NCBI GenBank assembly: GCA_965249115.1 | Contig: CBDFLI010000002.1 | Span: 1,561,859-1,625,858, forward strand | Length of the DNA: 64,000 nucleotides | Direction of reading: 5' to 3' | Origin: Dehalococcoidia bacterium | Lineage (GTDB): Bacteria; Chloroflexota; Dehalococcoidia; Lucifugimonadales; QGNO01 | Part shown: piece after piece, positions 13,370-62,925 of the stretch | Layout: every line of letters begins with the position of its first letter | Numbering within the stretch: the first letter of the stretch is position 1 | Program-made: the position numbers and the translations under genes | Notes under the pieces: model-generated | Seen by the model: the letters and a program-made list of their open reading frames with translations, nothing else | What the model was told of the DNA's origin: nothing | The model's database searches: none

Positions 13370-13429
13370 ATTATTGCGGTCTTTTGGCGAATATTATGTC
13401 TTTTTTTAGGGCGGTAATGTCAACGTCAG

Positions 13430-13723: not shown

Positions 13724-13758
13724 AGAGGGGAGCAAGGCTTGATGTCTTGCTCCCCTCT
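13724..13758 (-). terminator. Hairpin downstream of the membrane-protein operon
   Basis: AGAGGGGAGCAAG-N9-CTTGCTCCCCTCT forms a perfect 13-bp stem about 32 nt after the stop at 13790. The U-tract is weak (CTTGATTC). Confidence 0.5.
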
Positions 13759-13789
13759 GTATTCCAAGATACCTGTCGCTTTGCCAGAG

Positions 13790-14461
13790 CTAAGCGGAAG
13801 ACCCGGCGGGTTCATCCGGAAGCTCGCGGATACGCGACGACTGGAAGCGGAGGACCTGGACTATTGTGGCCAGGCCCAGAGAGATGGACACCAGGTACAC
13901 CGCCGCGCCGAAGCGACGGACCCCTTCTACCCATGTAGACCAGGAGGTTACCGTGTCTACGGTCCCCTGGTTCCCGTCCAGCACCGCACTGTTAACGACG
14001 ACGCCCAGGATGAAATGTACCACTACCGCAAACAGAAGCATCATCATGGCCACCATCATGGTCACCAGCATTCCCTTGGCGGTTATAGGCATTGCAATCG
14101 TCAGCACGCGCCTGCCGCTGGCTTCCTGGACGCTGCCTCCACCGGTGCGCAGGGCGCCCAGAATGCGGGCGATGGCGAAGACGATGGCCGAAAAGACCGC
14201 CGTGAACCCCAGGAACATCACGGCCGTTGTGTACTGGCCCAAGGCCGCTGCCGTGGCGGTGTCTTGAATTGTTGTCCCGGTGGCCACGAGGTTAGCCCGG
14301 GCGGCACCCAGGATGAATGCTATTGGGAAGGCCATGAGGGCCATTAGGAGCATTGGTATCCACAACCTGGTGCCCATCTTCTGGGGAAGGTTCAGACCCA
14401 GTGCGTGACTGCTCTCGGTGACGGTGTACTCACCGTGCCTGCTAATTGTTGAACTTGCCAT
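13790..14461 (-). CDS. Integral membrane protein of unknown family (paralog of the upstream gene)
   Basis: 223 aa with multiple hydrophobic spans. It shares the motifs ILGxLRxGGGxVQExxGxxVxTxxMPxTAK and LxFQxxRIREL with ORF 14461-15432. Confidence 0.7.
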   Translation of the reverse strand: MASSTISRHGEYTVTESSHALGLNLPQKMGTRLWIPMLLMALMAFPIAFILGAARANLVATGTTIQDTATAAALGQYTTAVMFLGFTAVFSAIVFAIARILGALRTGGGSVQEASGRRVLTIAMPITAKGMLVTMMVAMMMLLFAVVVHFILGVVVNSAVLDGNQGTVDTVTSWSTWVEGVRRFGAAVYLVSISLGLATIVQVLRFQSSRIRELPDEPAGSSA

Positions 14462-48763: not shown

Positions 48764-50215
48764 ATGTACACACCAACGTTGGAACAAGTGAAGACGCTGG
48801 CCCAACAGGGGGATGGCAACCTGGTCCCCGTGTACCGAGATATCAGCGCGGACCTGGAGACACCCGTGTCCGCCTTCCTGAAGATCGCACGAGGGCCCTA
48901 CTCATTTTTACTGGAGAGCGTAGAAGGGGGGGAACGGCAGGCACAGTACAGCTTCATAGGGACTGAGCCGTACCGCCTGCTCAAGACCGGCCCGGGCACT
49001 GAGACGGGTCCCATAGACCCCCTGCCGCCCATCGAGCAGGAGCTGTCTACCCACAAGTCGGTGACAGTGGAAGGGCTGCCCCGTTTCATTGGTGGCGCCA
49101 TGGGCTACCTGAGCTACGAGTGCGTGAGCTACTTCGAGCCCCGGGTGCCCCCTGCCGGAGAAGACCCCCTGGGTCTGCCGGAGTCTGTGTTCATGTTCAC
49201 GGACACGCTACTGGTGTTTGACCACCTGCACCACAAGATAAGGATAGTGAGCCACGTCCACCTGGACCTGGGCGCTGAAGAGGGATATGCGCAAGCTGTG
49301 GAACGCATCGAGACGTTGGCTCTGCGCCTGGAGGAGCCGTTACGACTGCCGCACAAGGTGCCCGCTGACAGCGCTCCGGCCGAGCCGACCTCCAACTTCA
49401 CCAAGGAGGCGTTCCAGGACGTGGTACGCCGCTGCAAGGAGTACATAGTAGCCGGTGACATCATCCAGGTTGTGCCGTCCCTGCGGTGGGCCAGACCCAC
49501 AACGGCGGCTCCCTTCGACATCTACAGGGCGCTCCGTGCCCTGAACCCGTCGCCGTACATGTACTTCCTCACCCTGGACGATTTCTACATTATAGGTGCC
49601 TCGCCGGAGGCCCTGGTGACCGTAGAGGACGGGGTGGTGCGCAACTTTCCGCTGGCCGGAACACGCAGACGGGGCGCGACGCCGGAGGAGGACGAGGCGC
49701 TGGCCCAGGAGCTACGCACCGACGAGAAGGAGCGTGCCGAGCACATCATGCTGGTGGACCTCGGTCGCAACGACGTGGGGCGGGTCTCGGAACCCGGCTC
49801 GGTGGAGGTCACGGACCTGATGCGGGTGGTCCGCTACTCCCACGTCATGCATCTGGAGTCGGAGATTCACGGACGCCTTCGTGCCGACCGCACGATATAC
49901 GACGCCCTGCGGTCGTGCATGCCCGCGGGCACCCTCTCGGGCGCACCGAAGATAAGGGCCATGGAGATCATCGCGGAGATGGAGCGGGAAAGGCGCGGCC
50001 CCTATGGAGCGGCGGTGGGCTACTTCGGTTTCCAGGGCAACATGGACACGGCGATCCCCATCCGGACCATCGTCATGAAGGACGGCGTGGCCCACGTGCA
50101 GGCAGGCGGCGGAATCGTGTACGACAGCGACCCTGAGGCGGAGTACGAGGAGACGGTCAACAAGGCGATGGCGCCCCTGCGTGCTATCCAGACGGCGGAG
50201 GAGGGTGGAGTATGA
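48764..50215 (+). CDS. trpE: Anthranilate synthase component I
   Basis: The sequences [24 protein letters not shown] and [11 protein letters not shown] are present. Confidence 0.9.
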
Positions 50216-50243: not shown

Positions 50244-50807
50244 GTGATCCTTCTCATAGACAACTACGACAGCTTCACGTACAACCTGTACCAGTTCCTC
50301 AGTGAGTTGGGCGCCGACGTGCGCGTCGTGCGCAACGACACCGTGAACCTGGAGGACATTCAGGCGATGGCGCCGGAGAAGATCGTCATATCGCCGGGGC
50401 CGCGCACGCCCGGTCAGGCGGGGATCTCCAACGACGTTGTACGGCACTTCGGGCCGGAGACGCCGACACTGGGCGTATGCCTGGGCCACCAGTGCATCGG
50501 CGAGGCCTTTGGCGCAACGGTGGGTTACGCGGGCGAGATCATGCACGGGAAGACGTCGGCCATCCACCACGACGGCAAGGGCGTATTCAGCGGCCTGCCC
50601 AACCCCCTGGAGGGCATACGGTACCACTCCCTGGCGGTGTACAAGGAGACGCTGCCACCGGAGCTGGAGGTCACGGCCTGGACGGACAGCGGCGTCATCA
50701 TGGGCCTACGGCACACGGAATACCCAATTGAGGGCATCCAGTTCCACCCGGAGTCCATCATGACTCAGTCGGGCATCGAGTTGCTGAAGAACTTTTTGGA
50801 AGGGTGA
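50244..50807 (+). CDS. trpG: Anthranilate synthase component II (glutamine amidotransferase)
   Basis: The start is the GTG at 50244. [23 protein letters not shown] (catalytic Cys) and FHPES are present. Confidence 0.9.
50771..50807 (+). repeat. trpG 3-prime tail, copy 1 of a reiterated junction sequence
   Basis: GGGCATCGAGTTGCTGAAGAACTTTTTGGAAGGGTGA. Copy 2 is at 51412-51448 (36/37 identical). Confidence 0.9.
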
Positions 50808-50861
50808 ACATCCACCATCGACAACACAGGGACCGCATAGGTCATCTTGGAACACAGTTTC

Positions 50862-50887
50862 CCGTATTCCCGTAAATACGGTATAAT
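50862..50887 (+). promoter_or_regulatory. Palindromic operator-like site abutting a TATAAT box
   Basis: CCGTATT-N6-AATACGG (50862-50881) is immediately followed by TATAAT (50882-50887), about 25 nt upstream of the antitoxin ATG. Confidence 0.4.
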
Positions 50888-50911
50888 GGGCGAAACTGGA
50901 GGTAAGAAAAC

Positions 50912-51166
50912 ATGGCGCAGAAAACGGCCAAGTTGACGGTTGATGTGGGTGACCCGCGCCTTTACAAAGCCATCAAGATATTGGCCATTGAGCGTGGCTC
51001 GACTCTGCGTGAAGTGGTGGTGGAAGCGCTCAGGGACTGGATAGGGAAGCAGGAGGACCTGGAAGACCTTGCGGCTATTGAGGAGGTGCGGGGAGAACCA
51101 ACGCGCCCAATAGAAGAACTTATAAGAGAGCTGGGCGACAGTGACCTACTCGGTAGTAACCAGTAG
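50912..51166 (+). CDS. Type II antitoxin (RHH/RelB-ParD-like)
   Basis: 84 aa. It overlaps the downstream RelE/ParE toxin gene, and the N-terminal beta-strand/helix pattern (KLTVDVGDPRLYKAIKILAIERGSTLREVVVEAL) fits an RHH fold. Confidence 0.6.
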   Translation: MAQKTAKLTVDVGDPRLYKAIKILAIERGSTLREVVVEALRDWIGKQEDLEDLAAIEEVRGEPTRPIEELIRELGDSDLLGSNQ

Positions 51167-51404
51167 ATCGGCTGATCGTGACATACGAAGGTTGGATGGA
51201 CGAATCCGCAGACAGGTGTTTGCAAAGATACTCGCCCTAAAAGACAACCCCCGTCCGCAAGACGTGAAGCTACTGCGCAGTCCTGGAAAACTCTACAGAG
51301 TCGCCAGTGGCGAGTATAGAATCCTGTACGAGATTAACGAAGCCACCAAGGTCGTGTTGGTGTTCAGAGTAGGCCACCGACGCGAGGTATATCGCAACCT
51401 TTGA
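51141..51404 (+). CDS. Type II toxin, RelE/ParE family
   Basis: 87 aa. LKDNPRPQDVKLLRSPGKLYRVASGEYRILYEINEATKVVLVFRVGHRREVY matches the RelE/ParE pattern. Confidence 0.75.
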   Translation: MTYSVVTSRSADRDIRRLDGRIRRQVFAKILALKDNPRPQDVKLLRSPGKLYRVASGEYRILYEINEATKVVLVFRVGHRREVYRNL

Positions 51405-51411
51405 TTTAGAT

Positions 51412-51448
51412 GGGCATCGAGTTGCTGAAGAACTTTTGGGAAGGGTGA
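51412..51448 (+). repeat. Relic copy 2 of the trpG 3-prime tail
   Basis: GGGCATCGAGTTGCTGAAGAACTTTTGGGAAGGGTGA differs from 50771-50807 by one substitution. Confidence 0.9.
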
Positions 51449-51453
51449 GAGGA

Positions 51454-51474
51454 GTATGGTACAATATACCATAC
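51454..51474 (+). promoter_or_regulatory. Palindromic operator-like site containing a TACAAT box
   Basis: GTATGGTA-caata-TACCATAC, with perfect 8-bp arms, lies 25 nt upstream of the RHH antitoxin start. Confidence 0.4.
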
Positions 51475-51498
51475 ATTGTTCTGGTAGGAGGTGGGTAT

Positions 51499-51756
51499 AT
51501 GCAAACCAAAGTGACTCTTTCTCTTGATGCGAAGTTGCTCCAGGAGGTGAGGCAGCTTGTTCAGGCAGGGGAAGCGAAATCTCAGAGCGAATTCTTTGAA
51601 AAAGCGCTGAGGGCGAAGCTGCAGCAAATAGAACGTGAGGAATGGGAGCGTTCATTGGAAGCGGCAAGTAAGGACCCTCTGTATCTTGCTGACATAGAGG
51701 AGGTCGAGCGCGACTTCAGGTACGCCGATGCAGAGTCGGCGAGAATGATTGAATGA
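51499..51756 (+). CDS. Type II antitoxin (ribbon-helix-helix, CopG-like)
   Basis: MQTKVTLSLDAKLLQEVRQLV...SQSEFFEKALR fits an RHH fold. Its stop overlaps the mazF start (ATGA). Confidence 0.65.
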   Translation: MQTKVTLSLDAKLLQEVRQLVQAGEAKSQSEFFEKALRAKLQQIEREEWERSLEAASKDPLYLADIEEVERDFRYADAESARMIE

Positions 51757-52106
51757 ACCCTCCGTGGCGCTGGCGGTTGTTCGTCGCGAATCTTGATCCC
51801 GTTGTAGGGTCGGAGCAGGCAGGTACAAGGCCTGTCATCATCATAAGCGATGAGGGCTATAATCGGCGGATGCCGCTGACCACTGTTTTGCCGCTTACCT
51901 CCAGAAAACCGGGACGCAATATATATCTTAACGAGGTCCTCTTGGAATCAGGCACTGCGGGACTATCTTTGGAGTCCATAGTCCTGGTGCCCCAGGTAAG
52001 GACGATTTCTAAAAGGAGGCTTTTGACCCCCCTGGGTTATTTGGACTCCCAAGATAAGCAGCAGCAGATCATGGAAGTTCTCAGGAAACATTTAGGCATG
52101 TGGTGA
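51753..52106 (+). CDS. mazF: Type II toxin, MazF/PemK endoribonuclease family
   Basis: FVANLDPVVGSEQAGTRPVIIIS...PLTS...VLVPQVRTISKRRL matches the MazF/PemK pattern. Confidence 0.85.
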   Translation: MNPPWRWRLFVANLDPVVGSEQAGTRPVIIISDEGYNRRMPLTTVLPLTSRKPGRNIYLNEVLLESGTAGLSLESIVLVPQVRTISKRRLLTPLGYLDSQDKQQQIMEVLRKHLGMW

Positions 52107-52140
52107 CTCTGGGCGGGAGTGAATATGGGAGCAAGCTATC

Positions 52141-52311
52141 ATGAGTAACGAGTTCACAGCGGTCGTAGAGCAAGAGAATGACTGGTACATAGCCTACTGC
52201 CCTGAGACCCCCGGTGCTAACGGCCAGGGCAAGACTCAGGGAGAGTGCCTGGCCAGCCTGGCAGATGCCATTGCGTTAATCCTGGAGGACCGGCGGGCAA
52301 GGAGTGGGTGA
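52141..52311 (+). CDS. HicB-like antitoxin (N-terminal domain only), no adjacent HicA
   Basis: 56-aa ORF, below the ORF-track cutoff. FTAVVEQENDWYIAYCPETPGANGQGKTQGECLASLADAIALILE matches the short HicB family pattern. Confidence 0.55.
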   Translation: MSNEFTAVVEQENDWYIAYCPETPGANGQGKTQGECLASLADAIALILEDRRARSG

Positions 52312-52331
52312 AGAATTTCTTAGAAGGGTAA
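52308..52331 (+). repeat. Degenerate relic copy 3 of the trpG tail, directly before trpD
   Basis: GTGAAGAATTTCTTAGAAGGGTAA matches CTGAAGAACTTTTTGGAAGGGTGA (50784-50807) at 19/24 positions. It still translates as VKNFLEG*. Confidence 0.65.
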
Positions 52332-52335
52332 AACA

Positions 52336-53349
52336 ATGATCCGCGAATCTATATCCGCGCTGGTGGAAGGCCGTGACATGACGCAGGACGAGGCCACCCA
52401 CGCCATGAACGAGATAATGGAGGGTGAGGCCACGCCCGCTCAGATAGCCGCCTTTGTCACCGCCCTGCGTATCAAGGGTGAGACCGTGGACGAGATCACG
52501 GGCATGGCCCAGGTCATGCGCGAGAAGTCGTTGAAGGTGACCACCGACGGCTACCTGGTGGACACCGCGGGGACCGGCGGCGACGGACAGAACACGATAA
52601 ACGTCTCCACCATCGCCGCCGTCGTGGCCGCCGCAGCGGGAGTCAAGATGGCAAAGCACGGGAACCGGGCCGCCTCCAGCGCCTGCGGCAGCGCCGAGGT
52701 CCTGGAGGGCATCGGCGTAAAGGTCGACCTAAGCCCCGAGGGCGTGAAGCGGTGCCTGGACGAGGTGGGCATAGGGTTCATGTTCGCGCCAGTGTTCCAC
52801 CCGGCCATGCGTCACGCCGGCCCACCGCGTCGTGAGATCGGCATCCGCACCGTGTTCAACATACTGGGACCGCTGACCAACCCGGCCGGAGCGGAGGCCC
52901 AGGTCCTGGGCGTGGCGGACCCTGCCCTGGGCGAAAAGATGGCCCAGGCGCTGAGCCGTCTGGGGACACGGCGGGCCATGGTGGTCCACGGTGACGACGG
53001 CATGGACGAGCTCTCCATCACCGGGCCGACGCAGGTGTGGGAGGTGTCGGGCGACAAGGTAAGGTCGTACACCGTTACGCCGGAGGACGCCGGGCTGGCA
53101 CGTTCAACCCTGGACAGCATCAAGGGAGGCTCGGTGGAGCGCAACGTGGAGGTGTTCCGAAGCGTGCTAGAGGGTGCAGGCGGGCCGCCACAGGACGTGG
53201 TGCTGCTCAACGCCGCCGCCACCCTGGTGGTGGCCGGTCAGGCGACCGACCTGAAGGACGGCGTCTCGAAAGCCAGAGAGGCCATTTCCAACGGCGCGGC
53301 GGCTGAGAAGTTGAAGTCGTTTGCCACGTTGAGCCAGGAGTTGAGCTAG
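52336..53349 (+). CDS. trpD: Anthranilate phosphoribosyltransferase
   Basis: The sequences VDTAGTGGDGQNTINVST, KHGNRAASS and NILGPLTNPA are present. Confidence 0.9.
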   Translation: MIRESISALVEGRDMTQDEATHAMNEIMEGEATPAQIAAFVTALRIKGETVDEITGMAQVMREKSLKVTTDGYLVDTAGTGGDGQNTINVSTIAAVVAAAAGVKMAKHGNRAASSACGSAEVLEGIGVKVDLSPEGVKRCLDEVGIGFMFAPVFHPAMRHAGPPRREIGIRTVFNILGPLTNPAGAEAQVLGVADPALGEKMAQALSRLGTRRAMVVHGDDGMDELSITGPTQVWEVSGDKVRSYTVTPEDAGLARSTLDSIKGGSVERNVEVFRSVLEGAGGPPQDVVLLNAAATLVVAGQATDLKDGVSKAREAISNGAAAEKLKSFATLSQELS

Positions 53350-53352
53350 TCG

Positions 53353-53615
53353 GTGGTATCACCTCCAAGAATCGTCTTTACTTCCCACGCCTTGCACAAG
53401 CTAGAGGTTTTGGCGGCTCACGGCTTTGCTATTGAACAGGAAGTGGTCAAAATGCAGTCAGAGAAGCCGATATGGTAGAGTCGGGATACGGAAGCAGAGA
53501 GATACGCCAGAAGCGCATATCACAAAGCCATGTATTACGAGTCGTTTGTGAAATCAGGGATAGCGAAATTACTGTGATAACAGTCTATCCCGGGAGGCGG
53601 GAGCGGTATGAGTAA
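53353..53615 (+). pseudogene. DUF4258-family putative toxin, frameshifted
   Basis: Frame 1 reads VVSPPRIVFTSHALHKLEVLAAHGFAIEQEVV...W*. Frame 0 continues with ...GYGSREIRQKRISQSHVLRVVCEIRDSEITVITVYPGRRERYE*. Together they resemble one DUF4258 protein. Confidence 0.5.
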
Positions 53616-53817
53616 GATTACATACAATCAGGATGTGGATGCCCTTCTGGTCGAACTTTCAGACGGTGATATCGACCATGCTGAGCAATCCGGAGAGCTC
53701 ATTGTGCATTTTTCGAAATCGGGAGAACCCGTTCTACTGGAAATCCTAGACGCCAAAGAGTTCATACTGGGTTCCCTAGCTACGGTTATGCGTGGTCCTG
53801 AGGCGAACACTACCTAA
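53608..53817 (+). CDS. DUF2283 family protein (putative antitoxin partner of DUF4258)
   Basis: ITYNQDVDALLVELSDGDIDHAEQSGELIVHFSKSGEPVLLEILDA matches the DUF2283 pattern. Its start overlaps the upstream stop. Confidence 0.7.
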   Translation: MSKITYNQDVDALLVELSDGDIDHAEQSGELIVHFSKSGEPVLLEILDAKEFILGSLATVMRGPEANTT

Positions 53818-53822
53818 GAGGC

Positions 53823-54626
53823 ATGGTCATAGCTACTATGCCTACTATTCTCGACCAAATTCTTGAAGCCAAGCGCCGGGAACTTGAGCGTCGCAAGCGG
53901 GATCAGCCCTTGGCCACCCTGGAGCAGCGCGCCAAGGAGACGCCGCTACCGCTGAACTTCTCGGGCGCTCTCTGGGGGCCGGACGTGCGCCTCATAGCCG
54001 AGGTCAAAAAGGCGTCGCCATCCAGGGGTCTGCTGGCCAGTGACTTCGACCCGGTGGGCCTGGCCCGGACCTACACTGAGAACGGCGCCGCCGCCGTTTC
54101 CGTGCTCACGGAGGTTGACCACTTCCAGGGCAGCCTGGAGCATATGGCCGGGGTGAAGGACGCCGTCGGGGATGCAGGCCTCCCAGTCCTGCGCAAGGAC
54201 TTCATCTTCGATCCTTACCAGGTGTACGAGGCCCGGACCTACGGCGCAGACGCCATACTATTGATAGTCGCCATGCTGGAGCCGACTCGACTCAAGGAAC
54301 TGATGGGCGTCGCACGGTCGGTGTGGGTCCAGGCGCTGGTAGAGGTGCATTCGGAAGAGGAGCTGGGAGTGGCCCTGGACGCCGGGGCTGAGGTCATAGG
54401 CGTCAACCACCGCGACCTGACCACCTTCGAGATGGACATGTCGCTGACACAACGGCTGCGCCCCCTCATACCCCAGGGCAAGGTCGTCGTGGCGGAGAGC
54501 GGCATCAGCAGCAGGGAGGACGTGGTCAGGATGAAGCAGGCGGGGGTCAACGCAGTGCTGGTGGGCGAGGCCCTGGTGACGGCATCTGATGTCGGGGCCA
54601 AGGTACGGGAGCTTGTTGGCAAATGA
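53823..54626 (+). CDS. trpC: Indole-3-glycerol phosphate synthase
   Basis: The sequences IAEVKKASPSRG, LRKDFIFDPYQVYEAR and GVNHRDL are present. Confidence 0.9.
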   Translation: MVIATMPTILDQILEAKRRELERRKRDQPLATLEQRAKETPLPLNFSGALWGPDVRLIAEVKKASPSRGLLASDFDPVGLARTYTENGAAAVSVLTEVDHFQGSLEHMAGVKDAVGDAGLPVLRKDFIFDPYQVYEARTYGADAILLIVAMLEPTRLKELMGVARSVWVQALVEVHSEEELGVALDAGAEVIGVNHRDLTTFEMDMSLTQRLRPLIPQGKVVVAESGISSREDVVRMKQAGVNAVLVGEALVTASDVGAKVRELVGK

Positions 54627-55288
54627 CTCACATTAAGATCTGCAGCGTGCAAGAAGCGGAGCATATGCTGGCCGCGGCGAAGGCCAGCGCCGACTTCGTG
54701 GGGTTGAACTTTGTGCCTGGTGTACGGCGTCGGCTGACGGAGGAGAAGGCCTCAAAGATGGTGCAGTCGTACAGGGCCAGATATGACCGCGCTGGCCCAA
54801 AGCTGGTGGGGATATTCGTTGACCAGCCGGTGGAAGAGGTGAACCGAATCCTTGAGGGGTGCGACCTGGACATGGCCCAGCTGGGCGGCCACGAGTCGGT
54901 GGAGTACATCGGCCAGGTGGCGCGACCCGTCATCAAGACGGTGCACGTGCCCGACGACCAGCCCGTGGAGTCGGTGGTGGCAAGTCTCGACTCCACCTTG
55001 ACGGATCTGGAGGCCATCGGTGCCACGCCGCTGCTTCACCCGAACGTCGGTGAGGCCCTGGGCGGCACGGGCGCATCCTTCGACTGGGAGATAGCGCGAC
55101 GGCTTGCCAAAGGACACCACTTCCTGCTGGCGGGCGGGTTGTCCCCGGACAACGTTGCGCTGGCAGTGCGCGACGTCCAGCCGTGGGGCGTGGACGTATC
55201 CAGCGGCGTTGAGACGGGCGGCATCAAGGACCCTGCCAAGATCGAAGCGTTCGTGTGGCAGGCACGGTCAGCCGAGGAGCAGATATGA
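54623..55288 (+). CDS. trpF: Phosphoribosylanthranilate isomerase
   Basis: IKICS...[11 protein letters not shown]...[11 protein letters not shown]...GVDVSSGVE matches the family. It overlaps both trpC and trpB as ATGA. Confidence 0.85.
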
Positions 55289-56475
55289 CCTCAACCAGAC
55301 CATTACCAGATGAACGGGGCCGCTTCGGCGACTACGGGGGAAGGTTCGTCCCGGAGACGTTGATGCCGGCGCTGGCGGAGCTGGAAGAAGCATATCGCGA
55401 GGCGAGCCAGGACACGGGATTCCAGGAGGAGCTTGCGACCCTGTTGAAGGAGTACGCGGGCCGTCCCACACCCCTTTATCACGCCGCCAACCTGAGCCGC
55501 CAACTGGGCGGTGCGCAGATATATCTGAAACGGGAAGACCTGGCCCACACCGGTGCCCACAAGATCAACAACGCCCTGGGGCAGGGGTTGCTGGCCAAAC
55601 GCATGGGCAAGAAGCGGGTCATCGCGGAGACGGGCGCCGGGCAGCACGGCGTGGCCGCCGCCACCGTGTGCGCCATGCTGGGGATGGAGTGCATTGTTTA
55701 CATGGGTGAAGAGGACATGCGTCGCCAGGAACCCAACGTGTTCCGCATGCGACTGCTGGGAGCGGAGGTGCGCCCGGTCGCCAGCGGCACCAGGACGTTG
55801 AAAGACGCCATCAACGAGACCATCCGGGACTGGGTCACCAACGTTGAGACCACCTACTACCTGCTGGGAAGCGCCGTGGGCCCTCATCCGTACCCAAAGA
55901 TAGTGCGGGACTTTCAGTCGGTCATAGGCCTGGAGGCCCGGGGCCAGGTACTGGACGCGCTGGGCCGCTTGCCCGACTACGCCGTGGCCTGCGTGGGCGG
56001 TGGCAGCAACGCCATCGGTCTTTTTTACGCCTTCGTCAGCAACGAAGGCGTAAAGCTGATCGGAGTGGAGGCGGGAGGAGAAGGTGTGGACACCGGCAGA
56101 CACGCGGCAACGCTGGCTACAGGAAGGCCGGGGGTCCTCCACGGCTCCTTCTCTTATCTCCTGCAAGACCAGGACGGCCAGATAGTTGAGACCCACAGCA
56201 TTTCGGCAGGACTGGACTACCCGGGCGTAGGCCCTGAGCACGCCTACCTCAAGGACATCCAACGCGCTACCTACGTGGCGGTAACGGATACCGAGGCGAT
56301 GGAGGGATTCCGCCTCCTGTCCAGTACCGAGGGCATAATTCCCGCCCTGGAACCCGCTCATGCCATAGCCTACGTGGCAGAACTTGCGCCTACGCTCAAA
56401 TCGGATGCCATTGTCCTGGTGTGCCTCAGCGGCCGTGGGGACAAGGACCTGCAAACGATCCAGGAAGCGACGTAG
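55285..56475 (+). CDS. trpB: Tryptophan synthase beta chain (canonical TrpB1)
   Basis: The sequences [24 protein letters not shown] (PLP lysine) and [10 protein letters not shown] are present. Confidence 0.9.
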
Positions 56476-56546
56476 CCGTTCACGTCACAGTGCATACGGA
56501 CCGGTTATCAACTGGGAAGCTGCCTGCGACGCCATTAAACCACAAA

Positions 56547-56567
56547 GGGGCAGCCTATGGCTGCCCC
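56547..56567. terminator. Hairpin between convergent trpB and the HTH gene
   Basis: GGGGCAGCC-tat-GGCTGCCCC forms a perfect 9-bp stem. The T-rich flank is on the minus-strand side only. Confidence 0.5.
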
Positions 56568-56593
56568 TAGCCTCATTTGGACGTTGCTTGATA

Positions 56594-56809
56594 CTAAATC
56601 ATCTCAGAGGTTGACTGTTCCAAGAACTTCACCAGGTCCTGTATGAGAAAGCGGCGGTCCTGCCGGCTCCCAATCCTGTAACTGGGGATGAGCCCTACAC
56701 TGCTCCACTTCCGCAGCGTATTTGGGTGGACGTGGAGCATTCGAGCAGCTTCGCCCACGCGTAACATCCCTGGCATCGCCACCTTACGGACCTGTTGCTC
56801 TATCATCAA
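56594..56809 (-). CDS. Excisionase/MerR-type helix-turn-helix DNA-binding protein
   Basis: LRVGEAARMLHVHPNTLRKWSSVGLIPSYRIGSRQDRRF is typical of the HTH_17/excisionase family. Confidence 0.7.
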   Translation of the reverse strand: MMIEQQVRKVAMPGMLRVGEAARMLHVHPNTLRKWSSVGLIPSYRIGSRQDRRFLIQDLVKFLEQSTSEMI

Positions 56810-57085
56810 ACCACCCCTCCGAATAACTGTATTTCAGTTCACCTTACTTAACAGAATGCGCCAACTGAGACGGCAAAGGAATCCTCCAGAAGAGGGATTT
56901 TGCGGCAGGTTATCACAGGGAAAGTCACTCAGACGGGCTAGTCAGCCCATTTTTCGTGAGCCTATATGGCCACTCGGTAAGATATGGTCAGTCAGGGCCT
57001 TTCAGCCAAACCAAATGACGGCCGCATGTTATTTAACAAGCCCCTGTAACGGTTACTATGTCCAGCCGTGGCCGAACATACCCAC

Positions 57086-57532
57086 CTATGGGAGCTCCAC
57101 TGTCGCACTCCCGGGTGTCGTCTTTTCACCCTTGCCGTTCTCCAGCCAGATGTCACAGTCCACCAGGCGTCTACCGCCGTCCTGGTACTTGCGCGTGACA
57201 ACCCCTTTACAGGTCAGGGTATCGTCCGGAAAGTCCATGGCCCTGTACTGGCACGCCATCTTCCTCAGAGTACCGGACTCGCCTATCCAGTCGGTGAGCA
57301 TCTGGCCGAGAAAAGCGTTCTTCAGTGCGCCATGGATGATCACTCCGGGGAGGCCTTTTTCCAAGGCAAACGCATGGTCGTAATGGATCTGATAGAAGTC
57401 CCCCGACGCCCCCGCATACTTGACCAGCATCTGGGTATTGGGAAGCTTCACCAGGGACGGGACCTCCATCCCCTCTTGTATGTCTTCCCAAGACAGTCTC
57501 GCGCTCACGCTATGCTCCTTGTATGACACCAA
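57086..57532 (-). CDS. MaoC-like (R)-hydratase/dehydratase hotdog subunit
   Basis: YAGASGDFYQIHYDHAFA...GVIIHG matches the MaoC dehydratase motif. Confidence 0.75.
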   Translation of the reverse strand: MVSYKEHSVSARLSWEDIQEGMEVPSLVKLPNTQMLVKYAGASGDFYQIHYDHAFALEKGLPGVIIHGALKNAFLGQMLTDWIGESGTLRKMACQYRAMDFPDDTLTCKGVVTRKYQDGGRRLVDCDIWLENGKGEKTTPGSATVELP

Positions 57533-57539
57533 CGACCCT

Positions 57540-57995
57540 CTAGTAGGTGATGAGGGTAGAACGCTGAAGGGCCACCGTTTTATTCGACTGGTTGACGTAC
57601 CGGATCTCGCGGGTAATGAAAATCATTGGGCCCATTCTACCGGAGCGTTCCACAACGTCCACCACTTTCTCCGTCACTGTGATGTGGTCATCCACCAGTA
57701 CCGGCTCAATGTACTCCCATTCGCTCCCGCCATCCAGGACGTGGTTCAACAGGCCCTCTCCACTAACACCGAAGGTATTTGGACGCATGGAACGCAGGAA
57801 TGTGGGAGGGGCAAGAATGCGGCCATAGCGAGAACCGGTCGCGTGGGTATCGTCGTGATAGAGGGGGTTGTCGTCATCAATGGCGTCGGCAAACCGGGCA
57901 ACGGCGCCGCACTCCACGGTGTAGGTCACAGGGCTGGACTCAACGCCGATGGACTTCTTCAACTTCTCTATGGTGGTCCTGCCTCTAGTGGGCAC
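57540..57995 (-). CDS. MaoC N-terminal-type hotdog subunit
   Basis: FADAIDDDNPLYHDD...APPTF is present. It is adjacent to the MaoC subunit, which suggests a heterodimeric dehydratase arrangement. Confidence 0.7.
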   Translation of the reverse strand: MPTRGRTTIEKLKKSIGVESSPVTYTVECGAVARFADAIDDDNPLYHDDTHATGSRYGRILAPPTFLRSMRPNTFGVSGEGLLNHVLDGGSEWEYIEPVLVDDHITVTEKVVDVVERSGRMGPMIFITREIRYVNQSNKTVALQRSTLITY

Positions 57996-58123
57996 ACAGC
58001 CTCCTCAATCGCAAGGACGTAGCGACGACGGAAAGACAAAGAACGCCGGACTGGGAGACACCGTTGGAAGGTCCGGCCCCGTCGGGAGACATTGCAGGAC
58101 GTTGAGCTAGAACCCAGGCCGGG

Positions 58124-58672
58124 TCAACCTGACGCCAACGCCTCCGCTTCACGAAGCGGCGCCAGCTTCTCGTCTCGCATCTCCCACCAGTAGTCACGGG
58201 TCAAGTCCATCAGTACCATGTCCCGACCGAAACGGTGTACCGCTCGCACTGGAGAGAAACCGCACTTCTTGAAGGAACGCTGTGCCCTGATGTTCCAGTC
58301 CAAGGTGTGAAGGTAAAGGCGCCGCAACTCCGCATCTTGAAATATGTGGTCAACCAACCCCACCATGGTGTGGTAGCCATAGCTTTGACTCCAGTAGTCG
58401 CGGTTGCCTATCATGATCCCCAACTCCGCCTCTCCGTGGGTGGAGTTGATTTCATAGCACATACAGTTGCCGATATGTTTACCGTCCAGGGTGTCTATTG
58501 CATACCGGACCGACCACGGGGACGGAAACCGTAGCTCATCTTCATAAATGCGAATAAACTGACTGAACTCCTGCTTCAATGGAGACGCAGCATCCAGGGT
58601 GGCCAGCTCTTCATCACACCGCCAGGCATAGTCGTCCGGGGCGTCTTCCAGGCGTTTGGGGCGCAGGGTCAC
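58124..58672 (-). CDS. GNAT N-acetyltransferase (RimJ/RimL-like)
   Basis: 182 aa. ...GEAELGIMIGNRDYWSQSYG...RRLYLHTLDWNIRAQRSFKKCGF matches the family. Confidence 0.75.
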   Translation of the reverse strand: MTLRPKRLEDAPDDYAWRCDEELATLDAASPLKQEFSQFIRIYEDELRFPSPWSVRYAIDTLDGKHIGNCMCYEINSTHGEAELGIMIGNRDYWSQSYGYHTMVGLVDHIFQDAELRRLYLHTLDWNIRAQRSFKKCGFSPVRAVHRFGRDMVLMDLTRDYWWEMRDEKLAPLREAEALASG

Positions 58673-58704
58673 CTTTCCCGCACGGATAACGGAAGCCCTA
58701 ATAT

Positions 58705-59154
58705 CTATGCGGCCTCCGAGCGGGCCATCTCAAGGGCCTTTTTCACCAGATTGATCTCGTCCCGATATGTCATCGTATTCAGAACGGTATCCTCGGGATA
58801 CCACCGCACCTCGTCAAACTCCGGATCGTGACGGGAAAAGTCACCGCACGTGGGCACCATCAAATAAAAATAAACCTTCTTATGGTATCGGGTGCCAATT
58901 TGCCGACCACTGAACCAGTACTCGATATTTCCCAGTGAGGCCTGGATATCCACATCCAGGCCTGTTTCCTCCCTGACTTCCCGGAGTGCCGTTTGTTCCA
59001 GGCTCTCTCCCTCTTCCGGGGTCCCTTTAGGAAGAGCCCATAGTAGAGGCGACCTGACACCGCAGAGCACGATCTCCAGTTGGTCGTTTAACTTCCGGTA
59101 AACCACACCTCCTGCGGAAACCAGGTCCTCTACATTCCCTCTTCTTCGCATCAA
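58705..59154 (-). CDS. NUDIX hydrolase
   Basis: The Nudix box GTPEEGESLEQTALREVREETGL is present. Confidence 0.85.
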   Translation of the reverse strand: MMRRRGNVEDLVSAGGVVYRKLNDQLEIVLCGVRSPLLWALPKGTPEEGESLEQTALREVREETGLDVDIQASLGNIEYWFSGRQIGTRYHKKVYFYLMVPTCGDFSRHDPEFDEVRWYPEDTVLNTMTYRDEINLVKKALEMARSEAA

Positions 59155-59247
59155 ACTCCTAAAGTATCACTCATTTTATGTACGACAAATACCAGCGTCA
59201 AGGAATGGCACCAGCATGACTATGCTATTGTACGGACGTTGTGGGGG

Positions 59248-59276
59248 TTGACATGGCTCCAGCTAGTGGAATAATC
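59248..59276 (+). promoter_or_regulatory. Possible sigma70-type promoter
   Basis: TTGACA (59248-59253), a 17-nt spacer, then ATAATC (59271-59276). A (TA)6 run at 59340-59352 lies in the leader. Confidence 0.35.
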
Positions 59277-59382
59277 CCCTTAGAGAATGCAGCGTATCAT
59301 ACCGGTCTAATATGCCGGGCTGGAGCAACCGTCTCTCACATATATATATATAACTGACACACGATTAGCAAGGAGTTTTCCA

Positions 59383-60717
59383 ATGCAAGATCTATTAGCG
59401 GGCCTGCGTATTTTGGACTGCACGACTGCGGTGGCCATGCCTACTGCCATGCATCTTATGTCCGACATGGGCGCCGAGATCATTAAGGTGGAGAGCCACA
59501 CGTTGAACAGGGACGAGATGGGACCCTACGTGGATAACGACCCCGGCGAGGAGTCCTGGAACAATGATGCCACTTTCCTTAGCCTTCATCGCGGGAAGCG
59601 CAGCCTGACGCTGAACTTCAAGGCCCCCGAATCCATCAAGGCCTTCAAAGAGTTGATAAAAGTCACCGACGTGATGGTGGAAAACAACCGCGCGGGCACA
59701 ATGGACAGGCTGGGGCTGGGCTACCAGGAGTTGAAGAAGGAGAACCCAGCCCTTATTTACTTCTCCAACACAGGGTTCGGCCACACCGGCCCGTGGAAAC
59801 GGTACGCCGGCATAGGCAGCATGCTAGAACTGATCTGCGGCCTCACCCAGTTTACGGGCTACAAGGATGGCACGCATCACCGCGTAGGAGCCGCCTGGTT
59901 CGACATACATGTGGCGTGGATGGCCATATTCGCGATCCTGTCCGCTCTGGAGTACCGTGACGAGACGGGCAAAGGCCAGTGGGTTGACTTCGCCATGTAC
60001 CAGATCGGCGTGGCCACCATTGGAGACGCCATCCTGGACTACACTGTGAACGGTCGCAATCCAAAGGTGATGGGCAACCGCCACACCTCTCACGCGCCCC
60101 ACGGCGTCTATCCTTGCAAGGGCGATGACAAGTGGGTAGTCCTCTCCGTTGAGAACGACCAGCAATGGCATGCGCTGCGCCAGGTCATGGGTCATCCTTC
60201 ATGGTCGGACGATCCCAAATTCGGCGACCCTCTCTCCCGCTTTCACCACCAGGACGAAATGGACAAACTTCTGGGTGAGTGGACCAAGGAGCTTGAGCAC
60301 AACCAACTGATGCAGACTCTCCAAGAGAACGGCATTCCCGCCGCTGCCGTAATGAACACCAGGGAGCTGATGACAGACCCCCACATGGTGGCCCGTAACT
60401 TCTATGAGCGTTTCAGGCACTCACCTGAAACCGGGATTGGCACCCGCGCCTACGTGAGCCGCCCCTGGAAGATGTCCAAGACGCCGGCCTTCATTCACCG
60501 GCCTGCCCCTGATCTGGGCGAAGCCAACGAGTACGTTATGGACGAACTGCTGGGCTGGAGCGAGGAGGACATAGCCAGGCTTTACGAGCTGGACGTTATG
60601 GCCAAGGCGCCAGCAAACCAGGGCACGCGCAAGCCCATGGACCTGGAGAGCCAGCTCCAAAAAGGCATCTTTGCTGAGATAGACCCTGACTACAAAAAGC
60701 ACCTGGGGTACAAATAG
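59383..60717 (+). CDS. Family III CoA-transferase (CaiB/BaiF)
   Basis: LAGLRILDCTTAVAMPTAMHLMSDMGAEIIKVE at the N-terminus and the overall length are typical. Confidence 0.85.
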   Translation: MQDLLAGLRILDCTTAVAMPTAMHLMSDMGAEIIKVESHTLNRDEMGPYVDNDPGEESWNNDATFLSLHRGKRSLTLNFKAPESIKAFKELIKVTDVMVENNRAGTMDRLGLGYQELKKENPALIYFSNTGFGHTGPWKRYAGIGSMLELICGLTQFTGYKDGTHHRVGAAWFDIHVAWMAIFAILSALEYRDETGKGQWVDFAMYQIGVATIGDAILDYTVNGRNPKVMGNRHTSHAPHGVYPCKGDDKWVVLSVENDQQWHALRQVMGHPSWSDDPKFGDPLSRFHHQDEMDKLLGEWTKELEHNQLMQTLQENGIPAAAVMNTRELMTDPHMVARNFYERFRHSPETGIGTRAYVSRPWKMSKTPAFIHRPAPDLGEANEYVMDELLGWSEEDIARLYELDVMAKAPANQGTRKPMDLESQLQKGIFAEIDPDYKKHLGYK

Positions 60718-60719
60718 AT

Positions 60720-61940
60720 ATGGTTACATCCGCACTGGGCAAATACCGCATCATAGACCTGAGCACTGATATTGCCGGGCCCTTCGCCACCAAGCTGTTC
60801 GCCGACTATGGCGCAGACGTGGTTAAGGTGGAGTCCCCCAGCGCCGGAGACCCCACCCGCTGGGTGGGTCCCTTCCATCACGACGACCCTCACCCGGAAA
60901 AGAGCCTGCTGTTCTTCTATCTGAACTGCAATAAGCGCAGCGTTACCCTGGACATCTCCACCCCCCGAGGCAAAAAAGCTCTGCTGGACCTGATCAAAGA
61001 TGCTGACGTCCTCATTGAAAACTATGCGCCGGGGCATATGGCCGAGATGGGACTTGGGTATGAAGACCTGGAAAAGACCAATCCTGGCCTGGTTGTAACG
61101 TCCATAGCCCCTTTTGGGCAGACCGGGCCGTACAGTGGCTACCTGGGAAACGACCTCATCTATCAAGCGGCCGGTGGCATGATGTACACCAGCGGCGCCT
61201 TTGACCGCGAACCACTGAAACATGGTCATCCCCAGAGCTACTATTTCGGTGGGATAAACGCCGCCTTTGCTACTATGGCTGCACTGTGGGGAAGAAAGGC
61301 CTCTGGGCAGGGCCAGCACGTGGACTTCTCCATGACGGAGGCGGCGGCGGTACACCACTACCAACCGGTGATCAAATACTCCTTCATGGGCACCGTTGAC
61401 AGGCGGGCACCGGAAGACGACGCGGAACACATGAAGGGGACGGGTTTTCAGGGCATCGTCCCTACGAAAGACGGGTACGTCGGCCCGACATTACGTCCGC
61501 CTCGCCGGGCATTGAGCGGGGCCGAGGCATGGACGGAATACGCAAAGATCATCGGCCGACCCGACATTGGCGAGGCGTTGGGCCAGGCGAAGACGGCCCA
61601 CGAGCGCAACGATATCCTGATGCCCGTACTGAAGGAGACGGGCAAGTTTGACTACTACCATGCCATCATGTCCAACGAGTGGCTTGCAGGGGTGGTCCAG
61701 ACCTCGGAAGACCTGGTCAACTGCCCTCAGTTGGAGGAGCGTGGCTTCTTTGTTGAGGTGGAGCACCCGGTGATGGGCACGCTAAAAATGCCCGGGGAAC
61801 TGGTCCGTATGCCCGAGTCTCCCTGGAGCCTGCGGTTTCCCGCGCCGCTCCTTGGGCAGCACAACGCTGCGGTCTATTGCGGGGAACTGGGTTACTCAAA
61901 GGAAGACCTGGTGATGCTCAGACAACAGGGAATAATCTGA
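60720..61940 (+). CDS. Family III CoA-transferase (CaiB/BaiF), paralog
   Basis: YRIIDLSTDIAGPFATKLFADYGADVVKVE is present. The gene starts 3 nt after the upstream stop. Confidence 0.85.
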   Translation: MVTSALGKYRIIDLSTDIAGPFATKLFADYGADVVKVESPSAGDPTRWVGPFHHDDPHPEKSLLFFYLNCNKRSVTLDISTPRGKKALLDLIKDADVLIENYAPGHMAEMGLGYEDLEKTNPGLVVTSIAPFGQTGPYSGYLGNDLIYQAAGGMMYTSGAFDREPLKHGHPQSYYFGGINAAFATMAALWGRKASGQGQHVDFSMTEAAAVHHYQPVIKYSFMGTVDRRAPEDDAEHMKGTGFQGIVPTKDGYVGPTLRPPRRALSGAEAWTEYAKIIGRPDIGEALGQAKTAHERNDILMPVLKETGKFDYYHAIMSNEWLAGVVQTSEDLVNCPQLEERGFFVEVEHPVMGTLKMPGELVRMPESPWSLRFPAPLLGQHNAAVYCGELGYSKEDLVMLRQQGII

Positions 61941-61987
61941 AAAGCGGTCCCCCGTCTGGACAGTTGCGGCAAGAATAACGCTGCGCT

Positions 61988-62911
61988 TTAGGCCTGGAAC
62001 TTGAAGCCCGCAGGGTCTTCTTCCATTTCCATCTGTTCAAGAGCCGCCTCAGCGGCTTCCTCCAGAGCGTCATCGTCGGACTTCAGGCACCTCAGAATCG
62101 CACGTTTGGCCAGTGGACCGCCAATGGCGCCTAACGCCTGAATGGCCGCTACCTGGACTTGTGTATCATCGTCCTGGATCAAGGGAACTAGGTACGGGAC
62201 CGCATCCTCCTCACCCATCTCGGCACATGCCGTAGCCGCCTCGTAACGCATGGCAGGGTCGCTGCTCTCCGTCTCCTTGATCAGGGTAGAAAGCCAGACG
62301 GAGTCCCCCGTACGTCCCATAGCATAAAGCGCGCTCACTCGCAGCTTGGGCTCCTCACTACTGTACGCCCACCGGATTAGCTCACTGATGCGCTTGGTGT
62401 CAAAGCATGCCGCCGCCTCCAAGGCCCGCCGCCGTACCTCCGTGCTCTCCTCCTGGAGGTCAAGCACATGGAGAAGGACGTCCTTGATCCGTTCTCCATC
62501 TCTAATCAACAGCTTCTCTTGTTGGGCCAGGGCGCCGAACTTTCCCAGGACCATTGCCGCCGAAGCCCGCACCTGTTCGTCGGGATCATCCTTCAGCAAG
62601 TTTATCAAAGGGGTCACCAGGTTCCGGTCATCACATTCCCAGAGGCCTGACACCGCTCTTGCCCGCACGTTGGGATCATCATCAACAAGACAGTGCTTGA
62701 AGATGGTGTAGTAGTCCAGTTCAACATTGTCTTCAGCGACGCTGACCATGCGGTCCATGAGGGCGCGGCGGCGCTCTACTGGAATCTCCGACCACAGGTC
62801 CCGGAACAGCCCAAACTCCAACTGGTTCAGACCTGACAGCTGCACCAGTTCCGCGTGGCTGGGCGTCCCATCACCCTGGGCCAGGTCTTGAAGATAGCGT
62901 TCCAAAGTCAC
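61988..62911 (-). CDS. HEAT-repeat (PBS-lyase-like) protein
   Basis: Repeated DPxVRxxAxxALG-type helical units occur across 307 aa. Confidence 0.75.
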   Translation of the reverse strand: MTLERYLQDLAQGDGTPSHAELVQLSGLNQLEFGLFRDLWSEIPVERRRALMDRMVSVAEDNVELDYYTIFKHCLVDDDPNVRARAVSGLWECDDRNLVTPLINLLKDDPDEQVRASAAMVLGKFGALAQQEKLLIRDGERIKDVLLHVLDLQEESTEVRRRALEAAACFDTKRISELIRWAYSSEEPKLRVSALYAMGRTGDSVWLSTLIKETESSDPAMRYEAATACAEMGEEDAVPYLVPLIQDDDTQVQVAAIQALGAIGGPLAKRAILRCLKSDDDALEEAAEAALEQMEMEEDPAGFKFQA

Positions 62912-62925
62912 GAAGTTCTACCTAT

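Follow-up and report, generated by a model that had tools for sequence, protein, structure and literature searches.

The tryptophan biosynthesis (trp) operon of a Dehalococcoidia bacterium (GCA_965249115.1, contig CBDFLI010000002.1) carries toxin-antitoxin (TA) modules between trpG and trpD, and these modules are bounded by direct repeats of the trpG 3' end, which we call tails. The whole stretch of DNA that was analysed, 64,000 nucleotides (nt) long, is termed the window, and coordinates are window positions except where a related locus (designated L001, L002 and so on) is named. Comparison with these loci showed that at least one module has been exchanged between lineages, that modules have been reordered and that the array is repeat-bounded. 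The reading that we favour, with moderate confidence, is that of an old, clade-wide modular array in which recombination within the tail repeats adds, removes and reorders modules. The genes of the window operon run in the order trpE, trpG, trpD, trpC, trpF and trpB, with inserts of about 1.5 kb between trpG and trpD and of about 0.47 kb between trpD and trpC. The features from trpG to trpD are as follows.

50244-50807, + strand: trpG (glutamine amidotransferase; Pfam GATase, 198 bits), its GTG start at 50244 being inferred from homologues
50761-50807, + strand: tail copy 1, the working trpG 3' end and reference copy (repeat search)
50862-50887, + strand: ParE-cassette control region, with an inverted repeat CCGTATT (50862-50868)/AATACGG (50875-50881) abutting a TATAAT -10 box (50882-50887), read from the sequence
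50912-51166, + strand: RHH-type antitoxin of the ParE module (Antitox_RHH 19.4 bits, cut-off 27.2; RelB-like 19.4 bits, cut-off 50)
51141-51404, + strand: ParE/RelE-superfamily toxin (PF05016 ParE_toxin 44.2 bits, cut-off 23, E 2.9e-11)
51402-51448, + strand: tail copy 2 (89% identical to copy 1 over 47 nt; core 51412-51448 identical at 36/37 positions)
51436-51474, + strand: MazF-cassette promoter/operator predicted by a promoter scan, with a -35-like TTGGGA (51436-51441, within tail 2) and an extended -10, TG-n-TACAAT (51460-51465)
51454-51474, + strand: MazF operator palindrome GTATGGTA-N5-TACCATAC (palindrome search)
51499-51756, + strand: RHH (CopG/MazE-like) antitoxin of the MazF module (RHH_1 28.1 bits, cut-off 20.5)
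51753-52106, + strand: MazF/PemK toxin (PF02452 PemK_toxin 83.9 bits, cut-off 23.1, E 1.1e-23)
52104-52119, + strand: probable start of a further tail copy (TGACTCTGGGCGGGAG) right 3' of mazF, aligned by eye with L161 and L162, without statistics
52141-52311, + strand: HicB-like (UPF0150-fold) small gene (UPF0150 16.2 bits, cut-off 27.3; PDB 2yzt E 0.003 over residues 4-54)
52294-52331, + strand: tail copy 3 as annotated (52285-52331 in the repeat search, 68% over 47 nt)
52336-53349, + strand: trpD (anthranilate phosphoribosyltransferase; Pfam Glycos_transf_3, 328 bits, and Glycos_trans_3N)

The repeat search returned a single direct-repeat family, its three copies lying in register. With up to three mismatches allowed, the 37-nt core of this family (GGGCATCGAG...GGGTGA) matched only at 50771-50807 and 51412-51448 in the 64-kb window, and no match is expected by chance (none in 100 shuffles). 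An earlier reading made from the letters of this DNA, hereafter the sequence-only reading, had reported that the last 37 nt of trpG recur with one substitution, which these matches bear out. It had also described a third, degenerate 24-nt tail, which proved to be real and in frame but longer than proposed: Smith-Waterman alignment extends over 36 nt (52294-52329), with 29/36 positions identical and a score of 37, where the best of 2000 shuffles reached 32, a similarity beyond chance. Tail 3 is in the reading frame of trpG (AGKEWVKNFLEG*), ends 4 nt 5' of the trpD ATG and includes a purine-rich AGAAGGG at the position occupied by the trpD Shine-Dalgarno sequence in compact operons; the C-terminus of the HicB-like gene extends into it. 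At the start of tail 2, the TGA stop of parE is the TGA contained in the ATC-ATG-ACT of trpG. When an nhmmer profile of family-wide trpG tails was run on all loci, the window copies scored weakly (E 0.54 for tail 2 and 1.8 for tail 3), and the significance of both comes from comparison with the window's own tail and from their position, not from the family profile. Five tails folded as DNA in a search for hairpins (+ strand, two of them also on the - strand) gave z-scores of -0.71 to +1.24 (0.18 to 1.24 on the + strand), no better than shuffles.

The copies appear to differ in age. Tails 1 and 2 share a window-specific Ile codon, ATC, and the differences of tail 2 from tail 1 are distributed 2/3/0 over codon positions 1/2/3, as expected of a recent non-coding duplicate. 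Tail 3 keeps the ancestral Lys codon AAG, lost in tails 1 and 2, and alignment shows it to be homologous to the tail lying 3' of mazF in L161 and L162, which together indicate that tail 3 is older than tail 2. The further tail copy after mazF appears to be interrupted by the HicB-like gene, seemingly inserted in the tail start. The inserts between trpD and trpC have no tail bracket.

The same MazF and ParE cassettes were found at the trpG-trpD junction of at least nine independent assemblies, including contigs of 99 kb and 173 kb. All MazF homologues with a readable context lie directly after trpG, at identities from 97% to 60% and in at least ten lineages, and the closest ParE homologues sit in the same arrays as the MazF homologues. 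The array orders are given below, where t is a tail copy and d a remnant.

Window: trpG-t1, ParE, t2, MazF, HicB, t3, trpD
L172 (closest for ParE, 94% in DNA): dMazF, t, ParE, t', trpD
L161: trpG-t, MazF, t, contig end
L162 and L163 (L164 and L165 shorter): trpG-t, MazF, t, ParE, t, membrane gene, trpD
L170: trpG-t, MazF, t, ParE, t, 221-amino-acid gene, trpD
L171: trpG-t, MazF, dParE-t, ParE, t, trpD
L002: trpG-t, MazF, dParE-t, ParE, trpD
L166: trpG-t, MazF, 10-nt remnant, ParE, HicB, membrane gene, trpD
L001: trpG-t, dRHH2, HicB, RHH2, RHH2/MazF, trpD

Tail copies of L002, L161, L162, L167, L168, L170 and L171 matched a profile of real trpG tails with E values between 5e-3 and 9e-13 (3.8e-6 for L002), and three copies each are present in L162, L170 (173-kb contig) and L171 (99-kb contig). 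The L162 type was recovered in four separate assemblies from different samples, L163 being a full-length twin and L164 and L165 reaching the first two tails only. Given the long contigs and the four assemblies of this type, the tail-array phenomenon is not an assembly artefact, and the comparative arrays uphold the earlier proposal that tails mark cassette boundaries. A 30-nt remnant of the parE 3' end precedes a tail in both L002 and L171, and the RHH2 genes are duplicated in L001. A degenerate tail perceived by eye after the L001 HicB-like gene (EPLRNWL) was dropped, as 850 of 2000 shuffles scored as well. In L172, positions 1-318 hold a transposase fragment (Pfam HTH_32, with IS630-like residues by eye) fused to the last 45 nt of mazF; a transposable element has therefore also struck the array, truncating the MazF module of this closest relative of the window.

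Several comparisons place recombination endpoints in the tails. Module order differs, with ParE before MazF in the window and MazF before ParE in L162, L170, L171, L002, L166 and L172, and BLAST blocks between genomes start and stop in tails. The segment 50770-51432 is 94% identical to L172, and its left neighbour is trpG in the window and the end of mazF in L172. The RHH2/MazF DNA of the window is 93-96% identical to that of L161 and L170 (95% to both for mazF), with a synonymous divergence (dS) of 0.19-0.24 to L170. The trp genes are less similar: trpG has 80-81% identity to both loci, and against L170 trpE and trpD reach 76-77%, with dS values of 0.63-0.83 for trpG and trpD. Tail 2 is itself composite, since its 5' half is of the window type (Ile ATC) and its 3' half, together with the cassette, matches L161. 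The differing orders, the boundaries within tails and the similarity of the MazF module relative to that of the trp genes support what the sequence-only reading had offered as one of its explanations, namely recombination between versions of the trp operon that differ in their TA cargo.

The internal tails also retain a coding signature. Differences between internal and resident trpG tails fall on codon positions 1/2/3 as 24/20/39, those between real trpG tails of different genomes as 56/45/91, and no indels were found over 13 aligned codons in 11 internal copies. This third-position bias indicates that internal tails are former working trpG ends and not copies decaying in place, window tail 2 excepted. 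The position of RHH/MazF directly after trpG in at least ten lineages, many of which share a tail behind it, makes the array old, and only tail 2 looks recent. All of the TA genes are under purifying selection, with ratios of non-synonymous to synonymous substitution rates (dN/dS) of 0.05-0.25. In Dehalococcoides, recombination is reported to have replaced the trp region between strains (PMC2764846), and hotspots of gene transfer between core genes, without mobile elements, are a known pattern (PMC5635113).

The same data bear on a rival history in which cassettes arrived serially, each copying the junction in place without exchange between lineages, the differences between genomes then reflecting vertical descent, local tandem duplication and decay. 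Tail 2, an almost exact copy of tail 1 that decays like non-coding DNA, is what such a history would produce; remnants of tandem duplication occur in L002 and L171 (parE 3' end), L001 (RHH2) and L096 (tail and spacer), and cassette divergence matches or exceeds that of the trp genes in most genome pairs. We nevertheless consider it quite improbable, because the MazF module is 93-96% identical across lineages whose trp genes are only 76-81% identical, because the ParE module is 94% identical to one that follows mazF and not trpG in L172, because internal tails diverge from resident ones at third positions as coding sequences do, and because many lineages have the MazF cassette together with its following tail, so that neither arose afresh with every arrival. 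The earlier proposal that the junction was copied each time a cassette arrived is therefore only partly supported: tail 2 looks recent, but the MazF cassette is old and followed by a widely shared tail.

In the reading that we favour, recombination in an old modular array, the inserts would form a series of autonomous type II TA operons within the trp operon and co-directional with it, each module comprising a promoter/operator with genes for an antitoxin and a toxin and being separated from the next by a copy of about 37-50 nt of the trpG 3' end. An early insertion right after the trpG stop codon would have been tolerated since a copy of the trpG end, including the ribosome-binding region of trpD, was duplicated before trpD. 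The tails would then act as portable homology: once two are present, recombination between them could excise a module-plus-tail circle or reinsert it at another tail, and incoming DNA from relatives could replace or add modules by the same route. At each event the incoming tail would become the working trpG end and the old one an internal copy. In the window, the ParE module would be the one most recently placed, or re-placed, beside trpG, which would explain the near identity of tails 1 and 2 (36/37), and tail 3 would be an older copy, probably kept because it supplies the trpD ribosome-binding region at its native spacing. The genes trpDCFB would have to be transcribed through the cassettes or from cassette promoters, and the TA modules probably persist through addiction and through the loss of trp genes that an imprecise deletion would cause. 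Homologous exchange is the probable mechanism: ordinary RecA-type recombination, seeded by one illegitimate duplication, is favoured because no recombinase lies nearby, the boundaries are variable and no site architecture is apparent.

Several observations weigh against this reading. The left ends of the tails cluster at -37 to -52 from the stop codon, with one at -66, and the right ends lie at the stop codon plus 0-5 nt. The toxin stop coincides with the TGA of the trpG ATGACC for parE in the window, twice in L171 and for mazF in L170, and in L162 the TAA of parE occupies the same position as the TGA of the trpG tail. Such regularity seems to exceed that of random illegitimate events and suits a defined attachment site. 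Identical stretches between tails are short, about 20-26 nt, which is near the lower limit for RecA-dependent recombination. In more distant pairs (L162, L166, L002, L001, L168 and L169) the cassette genes are no closer than trpG, and no empty site, excised circle or strain-level polymorphism was seen, the nearest full relatives being 71-76% identical in TrpD. The window is the only array with ParE first, its tails 1 and 2 share an exact 26-mer, and its order might conceivably reflect misresolved repeats or a mixture of strains. The reading does not account for the origin of the first duplication, and it infers that transcription reads through the cassettes, that tail 3 serves in the translation of trpD and that the TA pairs are active.

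The regularity of the tail ends would suit a second explanation, in which a dedicated site-specific recombinase, encoded elsewhere in the genome and acting in trans, uses the tails as its attachment sites and each cassette with one tail is a small mobile element. Insertion would take place at the trpG 3' end and bring a replacement gene end, as for integron cassettes or for prophages and islands targeting icd, tRNA or ssrA genes. Tails of similar length bracket each cassette, the stops of two unrelated toxins abut or overlap the same tail position, a MazF-type cassette (truncated in L001) comes first after trpG in every array but that of the window, a tail 2 that is half of one type and half of another relative to L161 is expected from a crossover within an attachment site, and the homology is very short for RecA. 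Furthermore, a large serine recombinase gene lies 3' of trpB in L002 and an excisionase-type HTH gene 3' of trpB in the window, and Dehalococcoides builds tandem islands with direct repeats at the ssrA 3' end (PMC2764846). Yet no recombinase was found in any array, and neither a recombinase nor a transposase in the window array or within about 5 kb of it (open reading frames of 44.1-64 kb checked by translations and Pfam). The left boundaries of the tails vary (-37, -42, -44, -45, -47, -48, -52 and -66), there is no inverted-repeat or hairpin architecture, most filled trp junctions of relatives have no tail repeats, the cassettes have their own promoters, unlike integron cassettes, and a search of 2.9 million viral contigs did not return the MazF operator motif. 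We regard site-specific exchange as unlikely on this evidence. The clustered left ends, the stop coincidences and the short identity nonetheless leave a real, if minor, chance of a dedicated enzyme acting in trans. A shade less likely again is the stronger proposal of an undescribed cassette-capture system, in which a trans-acting recombinase would move promoter-bearing TA cassettes with replacement trpG 3' ends across the Dehalococcoidia, integron-like but using a coding gene end instead of attC.

That the window-specific order, with ParE first and tail 2 before the MazF cassette, is an assembly artefact arising from misresolved tails or from two merged strains was also considered. In its favour, an exact 26-mer is common to tails 1 and 2, MazF comes first in all other arrays, and the repeat resolved the other way gives a standard trpG/MazF/HicB/trpD chromosome plus a circle or tandem unit made of ParE and a tail. 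Against it, a 26-mer is shorter than the final k of common assemblers. The junction between parE and its tail (TGATTTAGAT followed by the tail) is unique and must exist in the reads, and L172 has its counterpart (TGACTTAGGT followed by the tail). Tail 3 has diverged too far to be collapsed with the other two, and internal tails are found on the 173-kb and 99-kb contigs and in the four L162-type assemblies. We judge an artefactual order to be very improbable.

In order to place the window among its relatives, we compared 161 loci, a junction being scored as filled when its gap exceeded 150 nt. Nearly all of the TrpD relatives belong to Dehalococcoidia or Chloroflexota, and TrpD scans of genomes and metagenomes returned no strain-level relative, the nearest being L001 (76% identical) and L081 (71%). 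Gaps above the threshold were present at trpE-trpG in 15 of the 91 loci scored, at trpG-trpD in 40 of 109, at trpD-trpC in 30 of 141, at trpC-trpF in 5 of 116 and at trpF-trpB in 21 of 94, which makes the insertion of genes at trp junctions the rule in this clade and not an oddity of the window. The sequence-only reading had called TA genes within a biosynthetic operon unusual; this stands for bacteria in general and not for this clade, where junction inserts are common. The inserted families that resemble real genes are diverse and all lie in the direction of the operon; they include TA genes, a membrane protein of 221-254 amino acids, a VOC-like protein, an SDR protein and a DAHP-synthase-like gene of about 1 kb. 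In compact relatives, the trpG stop overlaps or almost touches the trpD start, and the last trpG codons contain a purine-rich stretch 5-12 nt 5' of that start, the position of a Shine-Dalgarno sequence.

Copies of a locus's own tail were found at only 2 of the 40 filled trpG-trpD junctions of L001-L160, plus L096, so that tail copying is not a general result of insertion, as the notion of a junction copied with each cassette would have it. All five junctions were searched in the 161 loci, and no own-tail repeats were detected at trpD-trpC, trpC-trpF or trpF-trpB. L096 carries two copies (1-100 and 410-500), about 410 nt apart, of a unit made up of the tail and the next 90 nt or so of hairpin-rich sequence, with no TA gene between them. 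Repeats without TA genes, a finding that the sequence-only reading had named as fatal to it, thus occur once; they show that the duplication is not specific to TA genes, and the phenomenon itself stands. Together with the tail-less state of most filled junctions, L096 indicates that tail reiteration is a property of the junction in some lineages and is not tied to TA genes. The L096 spacer is otherwise filled with short palindromic repeats.

Other changes at these junctions were noted in passing. The trpG gene is deleted between trpE and trpD in L049, L051, L063, L148, L149, L153, L159 and L160, and probably in L143 and L152; these loci keep 30-54 nt of the trpG 3' end (about 50 in most; ...PESIMTEVGKDLLRNFLKQGAQQ*) directly 5' of trpD, the remnant being decayed or carrying a 1-nt deletion in some of them. 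They offer an independent hint that the stretch preceding trpD resists loss. The predicted 221-254-amino-acid membrane protein is encoded at trpG-trpD in at least 16 loci (for example L030 3106-3771, L096 677-1441, L162 2320-3018 and L170 6349-7014) and had no significant Pfam match, a sub-threshold Hypoth_Ymh match being obtained in L170 only; in L030 and L096 its gene overlaps trpD by ATGA, as a true operon member would. A gene of about 331 codons, DAHP synthase-like by eye, lies between trpF and trpB in 15 loci (e.g. L015 4597-5592). The L002 TrpD (6001-7035) is 62% identical to that of the window, whereas L002 TrpE, TrpG, TrpC and TrpB are 75-82% identical and the TrpD proteins of other close relatives 73-76%, which suggests a replacement of trpD itself, between its two filled junctions.

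The individual modules have the features of ordinary TA operons. The functional labels proposed from the sequence held for ParE, MazF, the MazF-side RHH protein and DUF2283, all above their Pfam cut-offs; those of the ParE-side RHH protein, the HicB-like protein and DUF4258 score below the cut-offs and are plausible but unproven. In the ParE module, the control region is a putative autoregulated promoter/operator; it fell below the threshold of the promoter scan, and CCGT..ACGG motifs recur 5' of RHH1 in two relatives, L002 and L172, the latter at 94% identity. The toxin gene overlaps the antitoxin gene by 26 nt, and both the pairing of the RHH gene with ParE and the gene overlap are kept in six relatives (L002, L162, L166, L170, L171 and L172); dN/dS is 0.07-0.25 for the antitoxin and 0.10-0.22 for the toxin. 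In the MazF module, the mazF start and the antitoxin stop overlap in an ATGA (51753-51756), and dN/dS is 0.05-0.15 for the antitoxin and 0.06-0.08 for mazF. The toxin scored 38.6 bits against the NCBIfam MazF model, under its equivalog cut-off. The operator palindrome lies 0-8 nt 3' of a tail stop codon in L001, L002, L161, L162, L166, L167, L168, L169, L170 and L171. The substitution that separates tail 2 from tail 1 (TTTTTGG to TTTTGGG) falls in the -35-like hexamer (TTGGGA) predicted for the MazF promoter. A general role of the trpG tail as source of the MazF -35 was rejected: a hexamer of this kind is present in the window (TTGGGA) and, by eye, in L161 (TTGGAA), with none comparable in L162 or L002.

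The HicB-like gene is an orphan, as first described, since the only + strand open reading frames of at least 30 amino acids adjoining 52141-52311 are mazF (to 52106) and trpD (from 52336), neither of them a HicA partner. A HicA gene is likewise absent beside its homologues in L001 and L166, which have dN/dS values of 0.08-0.22. The inserts between trpD and trpC are the following.

53353-53615, + strand: DUF4258-like gene with one frameshift near 53470, read as two open reading frames (53353-53478 and 53472-53615)
53608-53817, + strand: DUF2283 gene (PF10049 44.2 bits, cut-off 23), its stop 5 nt 5' of the trpC ATG, with homologues at this junction of about 10 other lineages

DUF4258 scored 17.7-19.4 bits (cut-off 25), still below with both parts joined. 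The frameshift, already proposed from the sequence, was confirmed by comparison with homologues, since the DUF4258 frame of L002 is collinear and unbroken and L034 has an intact, separate gene; the broken gene could be a pseudogene or the product of a sequencing indel error. The DUF4258-DUF2283 pairing recurs in L002 (as one frame), L034, L045 and L080, and these genes or their remnants occupy trpD-trpC in about 11 lineages, where DUF2283 frequently persists alone. In L037, L042, L043 and L057, DUF2283 lies directly before trpC with no DUF4258 open reading frame detected alongside. A lone DUF2283 could be an antitoxin-like orphan outliving its toxin, or could have taken on a domesticated role.

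The remaining genes of the operon are listed below.

48764-50215, + strand: trpE (anthranilate synthase component I), a 483-amino-acid open reading frame tblastn-collinear with TrpE of 91 related loci
53823-54626, + strand: trpC (open reading frame; tblastn collinearity)
54623-55288, + strand: trpF (as for trpC)
55255-56475, + strand: trpB (as for trpC)

The inserts have a GC content of 0.46-0.55, compared with 0.65-0.71 for the trp genes. No leader, T-box or other RNA was found in the operon with Rfam, which matched only a distant tRNA, and no convincing terminator was found inside the inserts. Exact-protein look-ups with the TrpD and MazF of the window matched no record. An E. coli TrpA query detected no trpA after trpB or anywhere in the 64-kb window; the same query found trpA directly 3' of trpB in dozens of relatives. 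The absence of trpA was noted for the window (56476-64000), for L002 (10621-12027) and downstream of trpB in L170 and L171. The region 3' of trpB in the window (56476-64000) carries the excisionase-type HTH_17 gene on the - strand (56594-56809), and L002 10621-12027, also 3' of trpB, encodes the large serine recombinase, of 468 amino acids; in this clade the operon may adjoin an integrative element at its 3' end. Elsewhere in the window, a low-GC region (10100-13800, down to 0.43) beside a tRNA-Pro gene (13293-13369, - strand) carries two large open reading frames, 10538-11752 and 12186-13223, without a Pfam match.

It has long been asked how chromosomal TA loci spread where mobile elements are not evident, and this locus provides a natural, repeatedly sampled system for addressing the question. 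It shows that selfish cassettes can reside for long periods in a biosynthetic operon that is essential and translationally coupled, and it suggests a route to tolerance, in which the end of the upstream gene, with its ribosome-binding site, is carried along. Were a dedicated recombinase responsible, the array would represent a cassette-capture system of a new kind; should RecA be sufficient, it shows that a conserved coding stretch of about 40 nt is able to organise an array of gene cassettes.

Our literature searches returned no description of TA cassettes in a trp operon, nor of this repeat-bounded arrangement. The modules themselves are ordinary and resemble canonical type II TA operons (parDE/relBE and mazEF/pemIK) in their antitoxin-toxin order, gene overlap, RHH antitoxins, palindromic operator over the -10 and purifying selection, and differ from them only in location and in forming a repeat-bounded array. 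The pdif modules of Acinetobacter plasmids are small, recombinase-less units in which genes, including TA pairs, are flanked by XerC/D sites and mobilised in trans; unlike these, the trp array is chromosomal and intra-operon, and no dif-like 11-6-11 palindrome is visible in the tails. Phage 21 and e14 integrate in the 3' end of icd and duplicate it. Elements that target gene 3' ends, such as tRNA and ssrA islands, including the tandem ssrA islands of Dehalococcoides (PMC2764846), are likewise flanked by direct repeats of the target 3' end, and their repeated insertion gives reiterated tails of which one copy keeps the gene whole and the displaced ones are former ends. Those elements are however several to tens of kb long and carry their own integrase, whereas the trp modules measure about 0.6 kb, contain nothing beyond a promoter and the genes for antitoxin and toxin, with no element-encoded integrase, and have left repeat boundaries that cluster but vary. 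Hotspots flanked by core genes (PMC5635113) share with the trp site the accumulation of accessory genes at one place, the lack of mobile-element genes and the exchange between lineages; the trp site differs in lying inside an operon, between translationally coupled genes, and in using very short internal repeats, and not just the flanking core genes, as its apparent recombination arms. Integron arrays, for instance the Vibrio superintegron, similarly consist of co-oriented small cassettes, each followed by a short repeat, with variable order and frequent TA cargo. Unlike them, the trp array has no attI and, among the open reading frames of 44.1-64 kb, no intI, its repeats are a host coding 3' end and not attC hairpins, and its cassettes carry their own promoters and lie within a biosynthetic operon. 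In integrons, TA modules probably stabilise the array, and they probably do likewise here.

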